64,000 nt of DNA from Minisyncoccota bacterium (GTDB lineage Bacteria; Patescibacteriota; Minisyncoccia; Phycocordibacterales; SBAW01), in assembly GCA_018060985.1 (NCBI GenBank), contig JAGOUZ010000003.1, positions 47,356 to 111,355 on the forward strand. Reading direction: 5' to 3'. The position numbers and the translations under genes were made by a program. Positions 5,179 to 59,451 of the stretch are shown one piece after another; position 1 is the stretch's first letter, and each line of letters opens with the position of its first letter. A model generated the notes under the pieces. That model made no database searches and was not told the DNA's origin. It saw nothing but the letters and a program-made list of their open reading frames with translations.

Positions 5179-5724
5179 ATGGCTACCACAAAACTTTTAC
5201 AGGACCAGCAGAAGTCAGCTTTTAAAGATCTCAAAGACACCTTTGGGTGGACTAACTCTATGCAGACGCCCCGCATCGAAAAGGTGGTTGTCTCGGTTGG
5301 CGTTGGCAAGATGGCAAAAGAGAAGGGCCGTCAGGATATGGTGGCAAACCGCCTCTCAAAGATTACCGGCCAGAAGGCAGCTACTCGCGGTGCCAAGAAG
5401 GCTATTGCAACCTTTAAGACCCGCATCGGTGACCGTGTTGGCTACCAGGTAACGCTCCGTGGCGCACGTGCACAGGACTTTTTGAACCGCCTCGTGCACA
5501 TCGCACTCCCTCGCACCAAAGACTTCCGCGGCATCTCTGCCGATGCTATTGATGAGATGGGTAACTACACTCTTGGTATTAAAGAAAACACGGTGTTTCC
5601 AGAAACTGCAGACGAAGAACTTAAGGATGTGTTTGGTATGGCAGTAACGATTGTGACAACCGCTAAGAACAAGGCAGAGGCAAAGGCCTACCTAACCCAC
5701 CTCGGGTTTCCGTTTAAGAAATAA
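5179..5724 (+). CDS. rplE: 50S ribosomal protein L5
   Basis: 181-aa L5-like ORF. Confidence 0.95.
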   Translation: MATTKLLQDQQKSAFKDLKDTFGWTNSMQTPRIEKVVVSVGVGKMAKEKGRQDMVANRLSKITGQKAATRGAKKAIATFKTRIGDRVGYQVTLRGARAQDFLNRLVHIALPRTKDFRGISADAIDEMGNYTLGIKENTVFPETADEELKDVFGMAVTIVTTAKNKAEAKAYLTHLGFPFKK

Positions 5725-17283: not shown

Positions 17284-17297
17284 CAGCCAACCTGCTA

Positions 17298-17331
17298 AGG
17301 CGCGCGGTCTCCCGACCGCGCGCCTTTCTTT
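17298..17331 (+). terminator. intrinsic terminator after the RlpA-like gene
   Basis: GGCGCGCGGTC-tcccg-ACCGCGCGCC followed by TTTCTTT. Confidence 0.55.
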
Positions 17332-17349
17332 AATTGTGGAAGTGGGCGG

Positions 17350-17512
17350 GTTCAGTCACGAATAAACTTTTGTCGTCACAAAAGTTTTTCGCGACCCCGG
17401 CTCGCGGTTTTGCAATTGCAAAACATCGCTGCGCCCGTTCAACTCCGACGGCCGTGCCGGCCTTCTCACAGAAAATAAAAATAACCCTGCACAAGGCAGG
17501 GCATTTTTATTT
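17350..17512 (-). mobile_element. miniature insertion at the 3' end of ssrA (copy 1), flanked by direct repeats of the ssrA 3' terminus
   Basis: GTGGAAGTGGGCGG at 17336-17349 repeats 17515-17528 (ssrA acceptor/T-stem); the segment between carries a terminator hairpin, an inverted copy of the ssrA T-arm (17445-17460) and a multi-hairpin core with perfect palindrome TTTTGCAATTGCAAAA (17408-17423). Confidence 0.4.
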
Positions 17513-17890
17513 TGGTGGAAGTGGGCGGAGTTGAACCGCCGTGCAACACAAAAACTCAAAACATATCTACGAGAGGTAGACTACTTTAATTTCTTAGGCT
17601 CAATTGTAGAAAGTAGACAAAATAGGATTGAGTCGCAGCCTCTTAGTCTCAACTACAGAGCAAGACAGACTCTGTAGTCATAGCCCGTTATATAACACCC
17701 GCACCCAGAGCCGGGCTCGCTGGGGCAGACGTGACCTTAGGCGCGCGCAGTGGCGAACGAAAGATCATTCACCGAGAAATACGGTGACGTAACTGATTTT
17801 GCAGTTATGGTTTGAAGTTTTTTATAGCAGATCTCCACTGCTCTCCCGCATGTAATGCGAATATATGTATTGTCTAAGCCTGTCACTCCC
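17513..17890 (-). ncRNA. ssrA: tmRNA (SsrA), 378 nt
   Basis: Minus strand: 5' GGGAGUG pairs with 3' CACUUCC-A-CCA including G3:U70; T-arm GGCGG-UUCAACU-CCGCC (same loop as E. coli tmRNA); encoded CCA; intrinsic terminator immediately downstream; internal ORF GCA...UAA (plus coords 17802-17737) gives tag AKSVTSPYFSVNDLSFATARA; same strand as and downstream of smpB. Confidence 0.75.
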
Positions 17891-18736: not shown

Positions 18737-19180
18737 TTATTCGTTTTTCAAAGTTCTGCGCATCTCGCGCTCAGTATCTCTTTTCTTTAAGACGGCGCGC
18801 TTGTCGAATTTCTTTCTACCGCGCGCGACTGCGATACGGAGCTTGAGAACCTTGCCTTTATTATACACCGAAAGTGGCACTATTGTCAACCCTTTCTGCC
18901 CCTCAGCATCCGAGAGGAGGCCTATTTCCTTCTTGGTTAGAAGGAGTTTGCGGCTACGGGCCGGGTCGTACTCTTTTGGTATGTTCGCCGGCTGGTAGGG
19001 GGAGATAAGCATACCCACTACAAAGGCCTCGCCGCCACGCACTATTATATGTGAACCCTCAAGTTTGCCCTGGTGGTTGCGCAAACTCTTTACCTCGTGG
19101 CCAAACAGCTCTAAACCCGCCTCGTATTCCTCGAGGATGTCGTAGTCGAACCGCGCTTTTTTGTGCTCAATTAAGTTCAC
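18737..19180 (-). CDS. smpB: SsrA-binding protein SmpB
   Basis: 147 aa, typical SmpB (FDYDILEEYEAGLELFGHEVKSLR...). Confidence 0.95.
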   Translation of the reverse strand: MNLIEHKKARFDYDILEEYEAGLELFGHEVKSLRNHQGKLEGSHIIVRGGEAFVVGMLISPYQPANIPKEYDPARSRKLLLTKKEIGLLSDAEGQKGLTIVPLSVYNKGKVLKLRIAVARGRKKFDKRAVLKKRDTEREMRRTLKNE

Positions 19181-24609: not shown

Positions 24610-24682
24610 GGGCGTGTAGCTCAGCTGGTAGAGCAGTCGACTTATACTCGACCGGTCGCAGGTTCGAACCCTGCCGCGCCCA
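24610..24682 (+). tRNA. tRNA-Ile, anticodon UAU
   Basis: Cloverleaf GGGCGUG/CGCGCCC acceptor (one G-U), anticodon loop CUUAUAC, T-loop UUCGAAC; no CCA encoded. Confidence 0.8.
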
Positions 24683-24727
24683 CAAAAGACAGAAAGACCT
24701 GCCCTGCGGCAGGTTTTCTGCTTTTGT
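24683..24727 (+). terminator. hairpin/terminator after tRNA-Ile
   Basis: CACAAAAGACAGAAAGACCUGCC-cugc-GGCAGGUUUUCUGCUUUUGUG long imperfect hairpin with U-run. Confidence 0.5.
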
Positions 24728-24810
24728 GGGAGGCGGAGCGATGTTTTGCAATTGCAAAACCGCGAGCCGGGGTCGCGGGCGACTTTGCTGACGAGCAAAG
24801 TTGACCTGTG
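24697..24810 (+). mobile_element. miniature insertion at the 3' end of tRNA-Ile (copy 2), flanked by a direct repeat of the tRNA 3' terminus
   Basis: CCCACAAAAGACAGAAAG (24679-24696) repeated as ACCACATAAAGACAGAAAA (24811-24829); contains the core GGCGGAGCGATG-TTTTGCAATTGCAAAA-CCGCGAGCCGGGGTCGCG, 43/45 identical to copy 1. Confidence 0.4.
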
Positions 24811-24999
24811 ACCACATAAAGACAGAAAACTGTGCATAACCGTGCTTGTAGCTAAGCGGGAGAAGGAGGATAGTTATGGGACAGGGCTGAGGGGCCTAAA
24901 ACAGGTTTTATCAGCAGTATGGATGTTGGGTGGCGGGAAACCGCCCTTATTCATATCAGGAATTCGTTTGCTCTTTATTTATTTTTATAATTGCGTCCC

Positions 25000-26649
25000 A
25001 TGTCTACCAGAACGACGGTTTCGGTTGTATCTGCAGGTCTTTTTTTATTAAGTGTCCCGCTTCTTGCTTCCGCCGCCGTTACCTTCCAGGGTGGGTGGGA
25101 GCGAGGAGTGCTTACCGGAGCGGGCGAGTGGTCTAACAAGCAGGTAATGCGCCCCGACAGTTATCAGATTGTGAGCGACGTAGTGCGCACCGGTACGAAA
25201 GCGGCGCGCGTAGAGGTGCGACCCGGAGACAATCCACTTACATGGTGCTGCTCAAATACTGAGCGTTCTGAAGTATTGTTTATGACCAAGCCAGATGGCT
25301 CGATGGTAAATGAGAACAGTTCTAGCGGCACACAGTATTACGGCTTTAGTGTGCGCCTTGATTCCACCTGGGCAGCCAGCACCTGGGCCACTCTATTTCA
25401 GCTCCATGGTCCAGACTCGTATGGCACGTGGGCTTCATTTGAGTTGGACGCCCGGAATGATCGCTTTGAGGTATACATGCTTGGCGGCGATGTGACCCAG
25501 GTCACCAGTCCAACTACCTACGCGCTGTCTAATAGCTCTCTTAATCGCGGTAAATGGGTAGACTTTATCGTAAAGATAACCTATGCCTCTGGTCCGACTG
25601 GGGCCCTTACGGTGTGGCGTCGCGACGAAGGACAGGCTAATTTTACTCAGGTGGTTAATGCACAAAATGTGCCCACTTTGCAATATAAATCGACCGAGGG
25701 TACCCAAGTTGGTGCTCACTATTGGAAGGCAGGCATCTATCGTAATGCAGAAAGCTCGACCAGTATCTTATGGAATGATGGCTTTGTGCGCGCCGATACC
25801 TACGAAGAGATACTTAATTACTTTGGCACTACCACGCCGCCTCCACCTCCTCCGCAAGACACCACGGCTCCTACGGTCCCAACGGGATTGAGTGCTACCG
25901 CTGCATCTCAGACGGCCGTCAATCTTTCGTGGAACGCATCGACCGATGCAGTTGGTGTTGCCGGATACCGTGTATTTAGAAACGGCACTCAGGTTGCTGA
26001 TTCTCCTGGTAGGACCTTTAGCGACACCGGCCTTACTGCGGCCACGATGTACAGCTACACGGTTGCAGCCTATGACGCTGCAGGAAACTTTTCTGCGCAA
26101 AGCGGTGCGGTAAGTGCGACCACACAGTCCGCAGCATTTGCGCTTACTGTAGAAGCGGAGAACTTTCAGACCAAGTCGGGAGGCAATGGCAGTGTGAGTG
26201 GCGTATGGAACCTCAACTCAAACGGATACATATCGCATCCAGTTACGTTCCCAGGTACTGGCACCTATACTTTTGACATTGTGGCACGCGGCACCAAAGC
26301 GGCTGGCGCCTGGGCAAATATGCGCGTGAGCATAGACAATGTTGTTAAGAGTAATGTGACTGTTGACTCTACGTCACTCAAGACCTTTCGGGTGAAGGTT
26401 GCCAATGTAACGGCCGGACAGCATGTGCTTAAGCTCGAGTTTACCAACGACTATTACAACGAAAAGAAAAAAGAAGAAGATCGCAACTTACTTATAGACA
26501 AAGTCACCATTAAAAACTCCACGGCAACCGGCATGATCACTAACGTTGTATTTGCGCTAGCAGACACGATGTCGGTTGCGGGGATAAAACTAACCGCGAT
26601 TATTTCAGCTGCGATGGAATTGCTCGCAGGTGCGCAAGATACAGCGTAA
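25000..26649 (+). CDS. secreted polysaccharide-lyase-like protein with FN3 and carbohydrate-binding-module-like domains
   Basis: Signal peptide; beta-jelly-roll region (QYYGFSVRLDSTW...LFQLHG...YWKAGIYR) resembles heparin-lyase-I/PL-like fold; Pro-rich linker; FN3-like (LSWNAS...GYRVFRNG); CBM-like C-terminus; ORF track starts at TTG 24991. Confidence 0.6.
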   Translation: MSTRTTVSVVSAGLFLLSVPLLASAAVTFQGGWERGVLTGAGEWSNKQVMRPDSYQIVSDVVRTGTKAARVEVRPGDNPLTWCCSNTERSEVLFMTKPDGSMVNENSSSGTQYYGFSVRLDSTWAASTWATLFQLHGPDSYGTWASFELDARNDRFEVYMLGGDVTQVTSPTTYALSNSSLNRGKWVDFIVKITYASGPTGALTVWRRDEGQANFTQVVNAQNVPTLQYKSTEGTQVGAHYWKAGIYRNAESSTSILWNDGFVRADTYEEILNYFGTTTPPPPPPQDTTAPTVPTGLSATAASQTAVNLSWNASTDAVGVAGYRVFRNGTQVADSPGRTFSDTGLTAATMYSYTVAAYDAAGNFSAQSGAVSATTQSAAFALTVEAENFQTKSGGNGSVSGVWNLNSNGYISHPVTFPGTGTYTFDIVARGTKAAGAWANMRVSIDNVVKSNVTVDSTSLKTFRVKVANVTAGQHVLKLEFTNDYYNEKKKEEDRNLLIDKVTIKNSTATGMITNVVFALADTMSVAGIKLTAIISAAMELLAGAQDTA

Positions 26650-50144: not shown

Positions 50145-50293
50145 CAGACATTCGTAAGGGTCCGCTTAGGCGGACTTTTGCGTTGAAGAAAAAGGTGAAA
50201 AATGATAGCGTAGTGCTATTGTCGGGATAAGCAAAGCTTGCCCCGACGGCATTCGGACTAAAAGCACACGAGTGCGCTTTTAGCTCCTCATTT

Positions 50294-50367: not shown

Positions 50368-50494
50368 CCCGTTTCGCTTTAACGCCTTTTGCGTTAAGAT
50401 ACGGACGTTCGAAACAGTTTGCGGGGTAAGCATAGCTTGCTCCCGCGGCATTCGACGGCATAATGAACGAGTTCATTCTGTTCGGTTCTCATTT

Positions 50495-51037: not shown

Positions 51038-51180
51038 GCGATTGAAAAAAGCCTTAAAATACGCTACTCTGCGGAAGTTACTTGTTTGTCGTGCACATAT
51101 CCGCCGTTGTAAGCAAAGCTTGCAACGACTGCATTCGTAAAAAATGAAAATATAGGATATTCTCATTTTGTTACTCATTT

Positions 51181-51253: not shown

Positions 51254-51258
51254 CCAGG

Positions 51259-51285
51259 CCAGAGTAGCTCAGTTGGATGAACAGC
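51259..51285 (+). pseudogene. tRNA 5' fragment (acceptor 5' strand plus D-arm remnant)
   Basis: GCCAGAGTAGCTCAGTTGG matches tRNA-Thr(CGU) 5' end 18/19, then diverges into a 110-nt hairpin-rich segment. Confidence 0.4.
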
Positions 51286-51392: not shown

Positions 51393-51465
51393 GCCGGAGT
51401 AGCTCAGTTGGTAGAGCGGCGGTATCGTAAACCGCAGGTCGCCGGTTCAATCCCGGCCTCCGGCT
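51393..51465 (+). tRNA. tRNA-Thr, anticodon CGU
   Basis: Acceptor GCCGGAG/CUCCGGC, loop AUCGUAA, T-loop UUCAAUC. Confidence 0.85.
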
Positions 51466-51471
51466 CTCACG

Positions 51472-51514
51472 TTGGTAAACCGCAGGTCGAGGGTTCCCCG
51501 GCCTCTGGCTCCGA
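51472..51514 (+). pseudogene. degenerate duplicate of the tRNA-Thr 3' half
   Basis: GTTGGTAAACCGCAGGTC-GAGGGTTCCCCGGC-CTCTGGC-TCC parallels GGTAAACCGCAGGTC-GCCGGTTCAATCCCGGC-CTCCGGC of the intact gene; its acceptor strand CTCTGGC complements the upstream 5' fragment GCCAGAG. Confidence 0.5.
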
Positions 51515-51571
51515 ATTTTTATAAAAAGAATGACCGCGGGTCCCTTGGTAGGGGCTCGCGGTCTTATGCGT

Positions 51572-59220: not shown

Positions 59221-59260
59221 GTTGAGAAATAAGGCGTTTTCGGGTATCTTGGTCATGTAT

Positions 59261-59328
59261 TGCTAGATCCACTAATGGTGTATCGGCGATGTAGTGGCAG
59301 GTCCACTAATGGTGTTTTGACGTTATAT
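59261..59328 (+). repeat. two tandem degenerate copies of the tRNA-Gln 5' ~22 nt
   Basis: TTGCTAGATCCACTAATGGTGTA and GTGGCAGGTCCACTAATGGTGTT at 34-nt spacing, then the genuine TTGCCAGATCGTCTAATGGTAGG. Confidence 0.45.
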
Positions 59329-59399
59329 TGCCAGATCGTCTAATGGTAGGACTCCTGCCTCTGGAGCAGGGTATCTTGGTTCGAATCCAAGTCTGGCAG
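59329..59399 (+). tRNA. tRNA-Gln, anticodon CUG
   Basis: U1:A72 acceptor UGCCAGA/UCUGGCA, 3-bp D-stem, loop CUCUGGA, T-loop UUCGAAU, discriminator G. Confidence 0.8.
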
Positions 59400-59451
59400 C
59401 AAAGTTGTACGAGTATGTCGCGCGCGACATAATAAGCAGGGTAAGGTGAAG

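Follow-up and report, generated by a model that had tools for sequence, protein, structure and literature searches.

Cis-mobilizable elements (CIMEs) are kilobase-sized deletion derivatives of integrative and conjugative elements (ICEs) found at one site, and both phage CTXphi with XerCD and integron attC cassettes rely on a folded single strand, the stem of which mimics the duplex target into which it is recombined. Islands in transfer RNA (tRNA) genes (tDNA islands) carry another signature, a regenerated gene end together with a displaced fragment of that end, which forms part of the Islander definition (PMC4383910). Here, we describe small units located at the 3′ ends of ssrA, the transfer-messenger RNA (tmRNA) gene, and of tRNA-Ile(UAU) in a 64,000-nucleotide stretch of contig JAGOUZ010000003.1 from a Minisyncoccota bacterium; this whole stretch is referred to as the window. 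Taken as a whole, the explanation that we favor, and consider probable, is that they are miniature non-coding, non-autonomous insertion elements that target tRNA/tmRNA 3′ ends in Patescibacteria (Paceibacteria of the Adlerbacteria/Kaiserbacteria type). An initial annotation of the window had put forward, as the first of its candidates, miniature non-autonomous insertions at these two genes with duplication of the host gene end, and this headline is supported by the results given below.

Results

Organization of the two units

Read in the orientation of the host gene, both loci showed the same order of parts: the gene 3′ end (A), an A-rich trailer with a GC hairpin and a T-run, an inverted copy of the gene end (A′), and a module that ends in GTGAC and is followed by a direct copy of the gene 3′ end (DR). 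The unit size is ~130 nt for the short type and ~185 nt at ssrA. The parts of copy 1 and copy 2, with their host genes, are as follows.

17513-17890, minus strand: ssrA (tmRNA), host of copy 1 (ARAGORN; Rfam RF00023, 90.4 bits)
17513-17534, minus strand: repeat A of copy 1, TCAACTCCGCCCACTTCCACCA, from the T-loop to CCA, the functional tmRNA 3′ segment, read as the regenerated end by comparison with the empty sites L121 and L123
17472-17512, minus strand: terminator-like hairpin of copy 1, comprising the A-rich trailer, a GC hairpin (17484-17502), and a T-run (terminator scan)
17437-17471, minus strand: A′ of copy 1, inverted copy of the tmRNA 3′ part, in three sub-parts
17461-17471, minus strand: weak anti-acceptor stretch of A′
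17450-17462, minus strand: side hairpin of A′, GGCCGGCACGGCC, which covaries in L096 (AGCCGGAACGGCT)
17437-17449, minus strand: exact anti-T-arm of A′, GTCGGAGTTGAAC
17351-17435, minus strand: module of copy 1, 85 nt (covariance model R1, 101 bits)
17336-17354, minus strand: DR of copy 1, TGAACCCGCCCACTTCCAC, which begins in the T-loop and is conserved in L096 and L122; read as the ancestral tmRNA 3′ segment after its displacement
17297-17335, no strand assigned: ancestral trailer AATTAAAGAAAG and bidirectional terminator hairpin after the DR (terminator scan), with the layout of L121 and L123
24610-24683, plus strand: tRNA-Ile(UAU) (anticodon TAT), host of copy 2 (ARAGORN; Rfam tRNA, 71.4 bits)
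24679-24688, plus strand: repeat A of copy 2, CCCACAAAAG, the tRNA 3′ terminus and first trailer bases, which pairs with 24721-24730 in the minimum free energy fold
24689-24720, plus strand: conserved trailer ACAGAAAG, GC hairpin ACCTGCC-CTGC-GGCAGGT, and T-run (terminator scan)
24721-24730, plus strand: A′ of copy 2, CTTTTGTGGG, inverted copy of the tRNA-Ile 3′ end
24732-24816, plus strand: module of copy 2, 85 nt (covariance model R1, 104.6 bits)
24811-24829, plus strand: DR of copy 2, ACCACATAAAGACAGAAAA, copy of the tRNA 3′ terminus and A-rich trailer

The 14-nt repeat GTGGAAGTGGGCGG that had been reported to bracket the ssrA copy was found exactly twice (17336-17349 and 17515-17528), with 165 nt between the two occurrences rather than the 163 bp given before. 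Likewise, the tRNA-Ile unit was bracketed as described, by CCCACAAAAGACAGAAAG (24679-24696) and ACCACATAAAGACAGAAAA (24811-24829). The inverted T-arm copy noted at ssrA was confirmed, since reverse-complementing the tmRNA T-loop/T-stem GTTCAACTCCG gives exactly the anti-T-arm CGGAGTTGAAC (within 17437-17449, minus strand); the counterpart of this inverted copy at tRNA-Ile, CTTTTGTGGG (24721-24730), had been overlooked. In L077 (Asp) and L100 (Met), too, the anti-T-arm follows its host gene. The two loci do share a core, but one longer than the proposed 45 nt: 81 nt could be aligned ungapped at 84% identity, or 85 nt by the covariance model, and a single position differs between the window copies over the first 46 nt. 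Within it, the 16-nt palindrome TTTTGCAATTGCAAAA occurs exactly twice in the window (17408-17423 and 24744-24759). Compared with shuffled sequences, both regions folded far better (z = -10.4 and -8.0), and the GC hairpin between gene and module gave an intrinsic-terminator score on both strands at both loci.

Orthologous sites with and without a unit

The orthologous ssrA loci were fetched via homologues of SmpB and the tRNA-Ile loci via the aspartate carbamoyltransferase neighbor; here and throughout, all comparisons were of assembled contigs. The window smpB gene and the state of the ssrA site in four relatives, with their SmpB identity, are listed below.

18737-19180, minus strand: smpB (SmpB Pfam match), upstream of ssrA
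L096: SmpB 93% identity, ssrA site filled
L122: SmpB 89% identity, ssrA site filled
L121: SmpB 86% identity, ssrA site empty
L123: SmpB 80% identity, ssrA site empty

Empty sites, which the initial annotation had named as a check on its proposal, were thus found in relatives, and these relatives carried a single copy of the repeat. The tmRNA end of L121 (...CACTTCCACC) is directly followed by TATTAAGAAAAAG and a terminator hairpin, and that of L123 by GATATAAAGAAAAC and a terminator; in the window, it is the downstream repeat (...CACTTCCAC) that is followed by AATTAAAGAAAG and then by the terminator at 17297-17326. The trailer-terminator layout after the window DR is that of the empty ssrA sites, and the DR is therefore the displaced ancestral gene end. 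The functional ssrA end is supplied by the unit, and the old end, with its own trailer and terminator, has been displaced downstream. The ssrA repeat starts in the T-loop (GTGAC-TGAAC in the window and GTGAC-TCAAC in L096 and L122, the hyphen marking the junction), and its T-stem part is decayed. The trailer, GC hairpin, and T-run of copy 1 were kept at the orthologous filled sites L096 and L122, indicating that they came with the unit.

Loci fetched for tRNA-Ile had the gene order of the window. The L208 site was empty, with the tRNA end followed by AAAAAAGAAA and a terminator, whereas in L209 only TCG-TTTTGTGAC-CAC... is left, i.e., the last 9 nt of the module, followed by the repeat; at ssrA, too, L209 has a remnant with an internal deletion. 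The tRNA-Ile copy of L096 is truncated after CCGCGA. At L121, the tRNA-Ile site was also empty, and the local gene order is inverted there, so L208 and L209 were used for junction mapping. These empty, truncated, and remnant sites indicated that units were gained and then lost piecemeal in some lineages, and both ssrA and tRNA-Ile(UAU) are insertion sites.

Units also occurred in arrays. Behind tRNA-Glu(UUC) in L043 (7264-7730), a diverged unit is followed by a 26-nt copy of the tRNA T-arm/acceptor end, a second hairpin, the stem of which uses the displaced copy, a canonical module, a 53-bit module, and a partial module. In L102, partial repeats of A′ and the module start lie downstream of a full unit.

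Two observations concern the surroundings of the tRNA-Ile site. A tRNA-Ile with the UAU anticodon, an uncommon bacterial route to reading AUA, is conserved in the related L096, L121, and L208-L210. A polysaccharide-lyase/CBM60 gene at 24991-26649 of the window, between tRNA-Ile and recG, is absent from the syntenic L208 and L209, in which recG lies at most ~400 nt from tRNA-Ile, a gene gain or loss adjoining the element site.

A family of insertions at tRNA and tmRNA genes

When one genome per species was scanned with an 18-mer, most of the matches were chance palindromes from unrelated phyla, and the true copies were sorted out by blastn; these lay in nine loci of Candidatus Adlerbacteria, Kaiserbacteria, Parcubacteria, and Paceibacterota metagenome-assembled genomes (MAGs). 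A 20-mer scan of metagenomes yielded about twenty further copies, bringing the total to ~30 beyond the window. Both large collection scans used exact words of hairpin 1 of the module, and copies with other hairpins are under-sampled. The further copies whose existence the initial annotation had treated as decisive are thus many, and they almost always abut a tRNA/tmRNA 3′ end: an upstream tRNA or tmRNA gene on the same strand was present in 26/31 module copies. The module started 44 to 48 nt past the gene end in most copies, 77 to 97 nt in an extended subtype (ssrA, Asp, and Met), and 217 nt in a tandem case. Among the hosts were tRNA genes for Val (GAC, CAC, UAC), Glu (UUC, CUC), Ile (GAU, UAU), Arg (GCG, UCU), Lys (CUU, UUU), Asp, Met, Ala, Tyr, and Leu as well as tmRNA, at least 17 gene species overall; the L070 and L119 copies had no detectable tRNA or other Rfam RNA upstream.

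A covariance model, R1, was built from 22 copies. Run over the 64-kb window, it recovered exactly two copies (104.6 and 101 bits), with only ~22 bits on the opposite strand. Given some 30 extra copies at the same position relative to tRNA genes, chance is excluded. A full-text literature search with the palindrome string returned no paper, and this family of tRNA/tmRNA-3′-end insertions is previously undescribed.

The GC hairpin between gene and module showed no strand bias (11/20 copies). By inspection, its loop is CTGC in ~15/21 copies, on at least 7 different stems. The hairpin ACCTGCC-CTGC-GGCAGGT is present not only behind tRNA-Ile but also behind Arg, Val, Lys, and Tyr tRNA genes; therefore, the hairpin travels with the module and is part of the mobile unit.

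Other modules, unrelated in appearance, share this layout: they follow tRNA-Asp in L100, tRNA-Leu(GAG) in L104, tRNA-Leu(TAA) in L102, and tRNA-His in L120, with a terminator hairpin, an inverted host T-arm, a structured body, and a direct host T-arm (e.g., GGGACTTGAAAAGG...GATTCAAGTCC). A still smaller insertion of the same logic but without a module was seen in L042, 3′ of tRNA-Ala(TGC) (5226-5299, minus strand), where a 44-nt hairpin-only insertion precedes a 27-nt direct T-arm/acceptor copy.

Host-derived segments and mosaic units

In a permutation test on 20 copies, A′ matched its own host far better than other hosts (9.2 versus 5.9; p<1e-4), and so did the DR, more weakly (6.5 versus 5.4; p=1e-4). 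The DR signal came mainly from ssrA, Ile(UAU), Met, Val(GAC), Lys(UUU), and Glu(CUC). The length of the duplicated host segment varied from ~7 to 26 nt. In the extended subtype, the inverted copies GGGACTTGAAC (Asp), GGGATTTGCAC (Met), and CGGAGTTGAAC (tmRNA) are each the reverse complement of their own host; the inverted copy reaches the T-arm and the repeat does too, and the three host-derived segments are therefore co-extensive. A:A′ pairing was better kept than A′:DR pairing, and the closing stem A′:DR is disrupted in the window ssrA copy. When copies of at least 8 nt of the last 24 nt of each tRNA gene were counted within 170 nt downstream in the fetched loci of the candidate phyla radiation (CPR), exact inverted and direct copies were found at 16% and 15% of tRNA genes, respectively, versus 3.6% and 3.4% in mismatched controls, a roughly four-fold excess.

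The units are mosaic. Domain 1 of the module had a mean identity of 87%, often 100%, and domain 2 only 64%, and the nearest relatives of a given domain 2 lay at other tRNA genes in other genomes (Val(CAC)-Val(GAC), 95%; Tyr-Ile(GAU), 93%; Arg(UCU)-Val(GAC), 91%). The module most similar to that of the window ssrA unit was from an Arg(UCU) copy and not from the ssrA copies of orthologous loci. The window Ile(UAU) unit matched the L114 Lys(UUU) unit at 88% identity over 141 nt; their 48-nt hairpin parts differ at three positions, two of which are in A′ and mirror the host acceptors (CCCAC/GTGGG versus CGGAC/GTCCG). Between Ile(UAU) and Ile(GAU), the modules are ~96% identical, as counted from the alignment, and the hairpin is different. 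The hairpin part and the module assort independently.

L096 is syntenic with 17.3-26.9 kb of the window, with genes at 70-85% nucleotide identity, whereas ssrA and its unit together reach 90% identity over 600 nt. From the window to L096, the side hairpin underwent a compensatory change (GGCCG...CGGCC to AGCCG...CGGCT). Both observations point to constraint.

Structure of the module

The module folds into two adjacent hairpin domains with 32 pairs, of which 20 changed on both sides among the 22 copies, and the RNAalifold structure equals the hand-drawn covariation structure exactly. Paired cells amounted to 96.2%, versus 81.3% in column shuffles (0/500) and 35-44% with slid partners. Domain 1 holds the palindromic hairpin, and domain 2 consists of the P2 stem and a GACG-loop hairpin and ends in GTGAC. 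The pair G2:C36 occurs in three states, G:C, C:G (five copies), and A:U (one copy), and the P2 stem swaps GGUC:GACC for GGCU:AGCC. In the third hairpin, the GACG loop stays constant on ever-changing stems; the compensatory changes that had been noted in this adjacent hairpin hold across the 22 copies. The pair at columns 47:84 is G.U without exception (22/22 copies), and another pair is G.U in 14/22. In 20/20 copies, the sense strand gave the more stable fold, with a mean advantage of 11.2 kcal/mol over the antisense strand. The module is thus a conserved single-strand structure of the sense strand only.

The 16-nt palindrome forms hairpin 1 and has its canonical sequence in 18/22 copies, which is strikingly common; in four copies (L043 Val, L104 Val, L096 ssrA, and L122 ssrA), unrelated, fully compensated hairpins replace it. 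It is therefore the hairpin, not the sequence, that is conserved there, and the suggestion that the palindrome is a protein-binding operator, or alternatively a recombinase core, found no support as far as a sequence-specific site is concerned. The hairpin CGCGA...TCGCG drawn in the initial annotation was likewise given up, since covariation (GGTC:GACC to GGCT:AGCC; columns 50:81 and 51:80) favors the P2 stem GGTCGCGNN:NNYGTGACC.

When the window was searched with Rfam, only tmRNA and tRNA passed the gathering threshold; with lax filters on short segments, the best other matches reached 8.7-20 bits against thresholds of 37.8-111 and were mostly parts of terminators. Hepatitis delta virus (HDV)-like, K-turn, hammerhead, hairpin-ribozyme, and group II domain V structures were considered by inspection, and their topology or conserved bases did not fit; Rfam gave none of them. 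With 32 pairs, 20 of them covarying, the module is a new, well-supported structured motif absent from Rfam.

Genomic surroundings and other tRNA-linked features of the window

The neighbors in the window are housekeeping genes (IF3, FtsH, dihydroorotate dehydrogenase, aspartate carbamoyltransferase, and RecG), and the NCBI annotation of the window SmpB is that of a Candidatus Pacebacteria MAG. Elsewhere in the window, GCCAGAGTAGCTCAGTTGGATGAACAGC (51258-51285) and GTAAACCGCAGGTCGAGGGTTCCCCGGCCTCTGGCTCC (51478-51516) are 5′ and 3′ fragments of tRNA-Thr with matching acceptor strands, which bracket ~190 nt containing an intact tRNA-Thr(CGT) (51393-51466). The locus looks as if an insertion that brought a new tRNA had split or replaced the gene; no group I intron was found by Rfam between the fragments. 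Three 34-nt tandem units at 59243-59344 overlap the start of tRNA-Gln (59329-59400), and the first two end in TTGCTAGATCCACTAATGGT and GTGGCAGGTCCACTAATGGT, degenerate copies of the gene start TTGCCAGATCGTCTAATGGT (first 20 nt), which are displaced 5′ fragments of tRNA-Gln. A 35-nt motif, TAAGCAAAGCTTGC..., occurs at 50228-50262, 50427-50461, and 51110-51144, 31-37 nt upstream of tRNA-Met, tRNA-Asp, and tRNA-Thr(GGT), and is a candidate tRNA promoter or leader box.

Discussion

That the units are insertion elements we regard as highly likely. Upon insertion, a unit brings in its own copy of the target 3′ segment, leaving the gene intact, and shifts the original gene end, trailer, and terminator downstream, where the old end remains as the direct repeat. 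Recombination would take place between the gene-end copy of the element and the chromosomal gene, with the enzyme encoded elsewhere; we see about an even chance that insertion is site-specific recombination by such a trans-acting enzyme. The crossover would lie in or 3′ of the T-loop at ssrA and around the discriminator in the short type. A circle junction would join ...TTCGTGAC to TCAACTCCGCC for ssrA and ...TGTGAC to CACAAAAGACAG for tRNA-Ile. The order A, hairpin, A′, module, A would be expected if the recombining partner were a folded single strand mimicking the duplex target, and we regard such an intermediate as the most economical mechanism, doubtful as it must be called. The module may act as a cis-acting structure and/or as an RNA made by read-through from the tRNA gene.

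Several points weigh against this explanation or parts of it. Pfam detected no recombinase, integrase, transposase, HUH protein, or reverse transcriptase among 40 window open reading frames (ORFs), which include most of the largest and were identified as housekeeping or pilus genes, so that the earlier remark that no integrase gene is in the window holds for these 40; no recombinase appeared in the precomputed gene calls listed for L121-L123 and L208-L211 either. IMG/VR contained no true copy in two pattern scans and a covariance model search of 84 loci, and blastn found none in GenBank phages or PLSDB plasmids, i.e., no true autonomous or viral relative emerged from these collections. There was no larger version or int gene among >30 copies and no conserved ORF in the units. 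With no recombinase in the scanned ORFs and no autonomous relative, the trans-acting partner is therefore hypothetical. In the assembled contigs, we saw no circular form, excision junction, or within-population polymorphism, and the empty sites could be ancestral rather than excised. About half of the short-type copies have only a weak DR or none. The ssrA copy was kept in three species with compensatory changes, which suggests selection in place and a host or RNA function instead of a purely selfish existence. As for the intermediate, the invariant G.U pairs are more in keeping with RNA than with single-stranded DNA, the terminator-like hairpin in front of the module argues against its strong transcription, and a usual duplex attP needs no inverted copy, with no usual left core-binding arm evident at the GTGAC junction. 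A guide resembling the IS110 bridge RNA was also considered and rejected, as both copies, inverted and direct, correspond to one and the same target segment and are mutually complementary, and no recombinase is adjacent.

The same retention and the sense-only structure with its invariant G.U pairs could instead point to a structured RNA that serves the host, released from the tRNA/tmRNA 3′ trailer for processing, stability, or regulation, with the flanking copies as pairing partners and the insertion history secondary. It would account for the constant co-orientation with the host gene, the frequent position between tRNAs of a cluster (L084, L094, and L098), the second terminator-like hairpin after some copies (L117 and L059), a domain 1 that is 87-100% identical across species the genes of which are 70-85% identical, and the ssrA copy retained with compensatory changes in three species. 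We nevertheless judge it unlikely: only some tRNAs are occupied, and these differ among genomes (L098/L042 versus L116); at orthologous sites the copy may be missing, truncated, or deleted almost completely, so the element is dispensable; and arrays and partial copies exist (L043 and L102). A terminator-like hairpin separates gene from module, which, together with the decay of copies, argues against an essential host RNA. Moreover, the closing stem A′:DR is degraded in the window ssrA copy, the DR decays in many copies, and the ancestral trailer and terminator after the downstream repeat are left unexplained. The structured RNA of the initial annotation survives as a sense-strand structure carried by the insertion, not as its rival. 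If RNA was instead the mobile form, the units might be retroelements like short interspersed nuclear elements, co-transcribed with the tRNA and copied by a reverse transcriptase encoded elsewhere, with the cDNA entering tRNA genes by way of the gene-end sequence common to both. Primer-binding sites of long terminal repeat retroelements are complementary to a tRNA 3′ end, and the inverted copy resembles them; it is complementary to the adjacent tRNA 3′ end, including an encoded CCA (L001, L042, and L059), the sense strand has RNA-like structure, and no DNA recombinase is nearby. We find this quite improbable, since none of the 40 window ORFs scanned encodes a reverse transcriptase, the complementarity runs into trailer that does not look transcribed and matches the gene rather than the mature tRNA, and there is no poly(A) or other retro-insertion signature, whereas recombination explains the layout more simply.

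Regeneration of the gene end with a displaced fragment is shared with tDNA islands (PMC4383910), and the T-loop, in which the ssrA repeat begins, is a known integrase sublocation, as would be expected if the units were deletion remnants of integrase-bearing islands or prophages, attL and attR with a conserved arm between them. Against this, >30 copies have one small uniform architecture, and in none of them is the interior larger or an int gene present; that interior consists of a strand-specific structure with covariation, not of arm-type repeats; near-identical units stand at different tRNAs; and viral, phage, and plasmid collections hold no relative. Such an origin therefore seems very improbable, and the att-site scars of excised islands that had also been proposed do not fit, because precise excision leaves a clean site and the >30 copies are uniform. 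Small size, lack of coding capacity and of an internal transposase, abundance of hairpins, strand specificity, and location at gene 3′ ends recall, on the other hand, single-stranded DNA repeats of the repetitive extragenic palindromic (REP)/REPIN or IS200/IS605 type, mobilized by a Y1/HUH transposase (a REP-associated tyrosine transposase, RAYT) and accumulating after gene ends. The REP and IS200/IS605 families insert by a short fixed tetra- or pentanucleotide without target duplication, whereas in the units a stretch of 7-26 nt from the end of the particular host gene is duplicated, with an inverted copy as well. There are only two copies in 64 kb, both at tRNA-type genes, and the insertion junctions have no conserved short target motif. 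None of the 40 ORFs scanned in the window proved to be a RAYT, and a genome-wide RAYT search was not made. We consider this origin barely credible.

If the units are insertion elements, the integration logic of tRNA genes, to regenerate the gene and displace the old end, would extend to its smallest scale yet, 130-185 nt without any gene, in bacteria with very small genomes. The host-tracking inverted repeat leads to a testable hypothesis, recombination of a folded single strand at tRNA genes. As a further and rather unlikely step, the units may represent a new class of mobile elements that parasitize CPR tRNA/tmRNA genes via a folded single-stranded intermediate (RNA or single-stranded DNA). 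Were this true, the gene-end copy would pair with the inverted copy, and the hairpin so formed, a mimic of the double-stranded gene end, would be recombined into the gene; the 85-nt module would recruit host machinery as a cis-acting structure or even as a catalytic RNA; the result would be an integron-cassette-like or viroid-like minimal, replicon-free parasite without any gene. The helper enzyme, if identified, could offer a compact site-specific integration system that is easily retargeted. Apart from mechanism, the elements supply new terminators to tRNA/tmRNA genes, and displaced gene ends and partial tRNA copies can mislead the annotation of tRNAs and islands in CPR genomes.

Comparison with known systems

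The REP/REPIN, Correia, and BOX/RUP repeats are, like the units, short non-coding hairpin repeats at gene ends, co-transcribed and non-autonomous, but they lack tRNA specificity and regeneration of a gene end, and their target duplications are 0-2 nt. The units also differ from miniature inverted-repeat transposable elements: their ends (GACAG... / ...GTGAC) are not inverted repeats, the inverted repeat that they do have is host sequence and internal, the duplication of ~7 to 26 nt is not fixed, and no parent was found in the viral, phage, and plasmid searches. In E. coli, 3′ETS-leuZ is a functional tRNA 3′ external transcribed spacer. A functional RNA could come from the tRNA 3′ trailer here as well; however, the two are unrelated in sequence and structure, and the units are insertions with presence/absence variation.

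CIMEs resemble the units in having att-like flanking repeats, no recombinase of their own, and a presumed helper in trans; the units, in contrast, are ~100-fold smaller, structurally uniform, and multi-target, with no known parent. The resemblance to tDNA islands and prophages includes insertion at tRNA/tmRNA 3′ ends with a regenerated gene and the displaced fragment as DR, occurrence at ssrA, where the repeat runs from the T-loop, and tandem accumulation, as in L043 with its 26-nt displaced tRNA-Glu fragment. Yet tDNA islands measure kilobases, whereas the units measure 130-185 nt and carry neither the integrase by which islands are defined nor any other gene, and unlike islands they have an internal inverted target copy, a strand-specific two-hairpin interior, and at least 17 different tRNA species as targets of one family.

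With regard to attC and CTXphi-XerCD, the target is a tRNA/tmRNA end instead of attI or dif, the stem changes with each host, and the G.U pairs are RNA-like. The hairpin arms are host tRNA sequence without the R′/R″ core consensus of attC (RYYYAAC / GTTRRRY), and IntI was not found in the 40 ORFs. For CTXphi and the integrative mobile elements exploiting Xer (IMEX), the order A, hairpin, A′, body, A fits, with a tRNA gene instead of dif as the target and with no strand bias in the hairpin itself (11/20). What the units have in common with attC and CTXphi is a hairpin made of two inverted target-like copies in the layout target, hairpin, inverted copy, cargo, target, together with a structure that is conserved above sequence, is strand-specific, and occurs in arrays.

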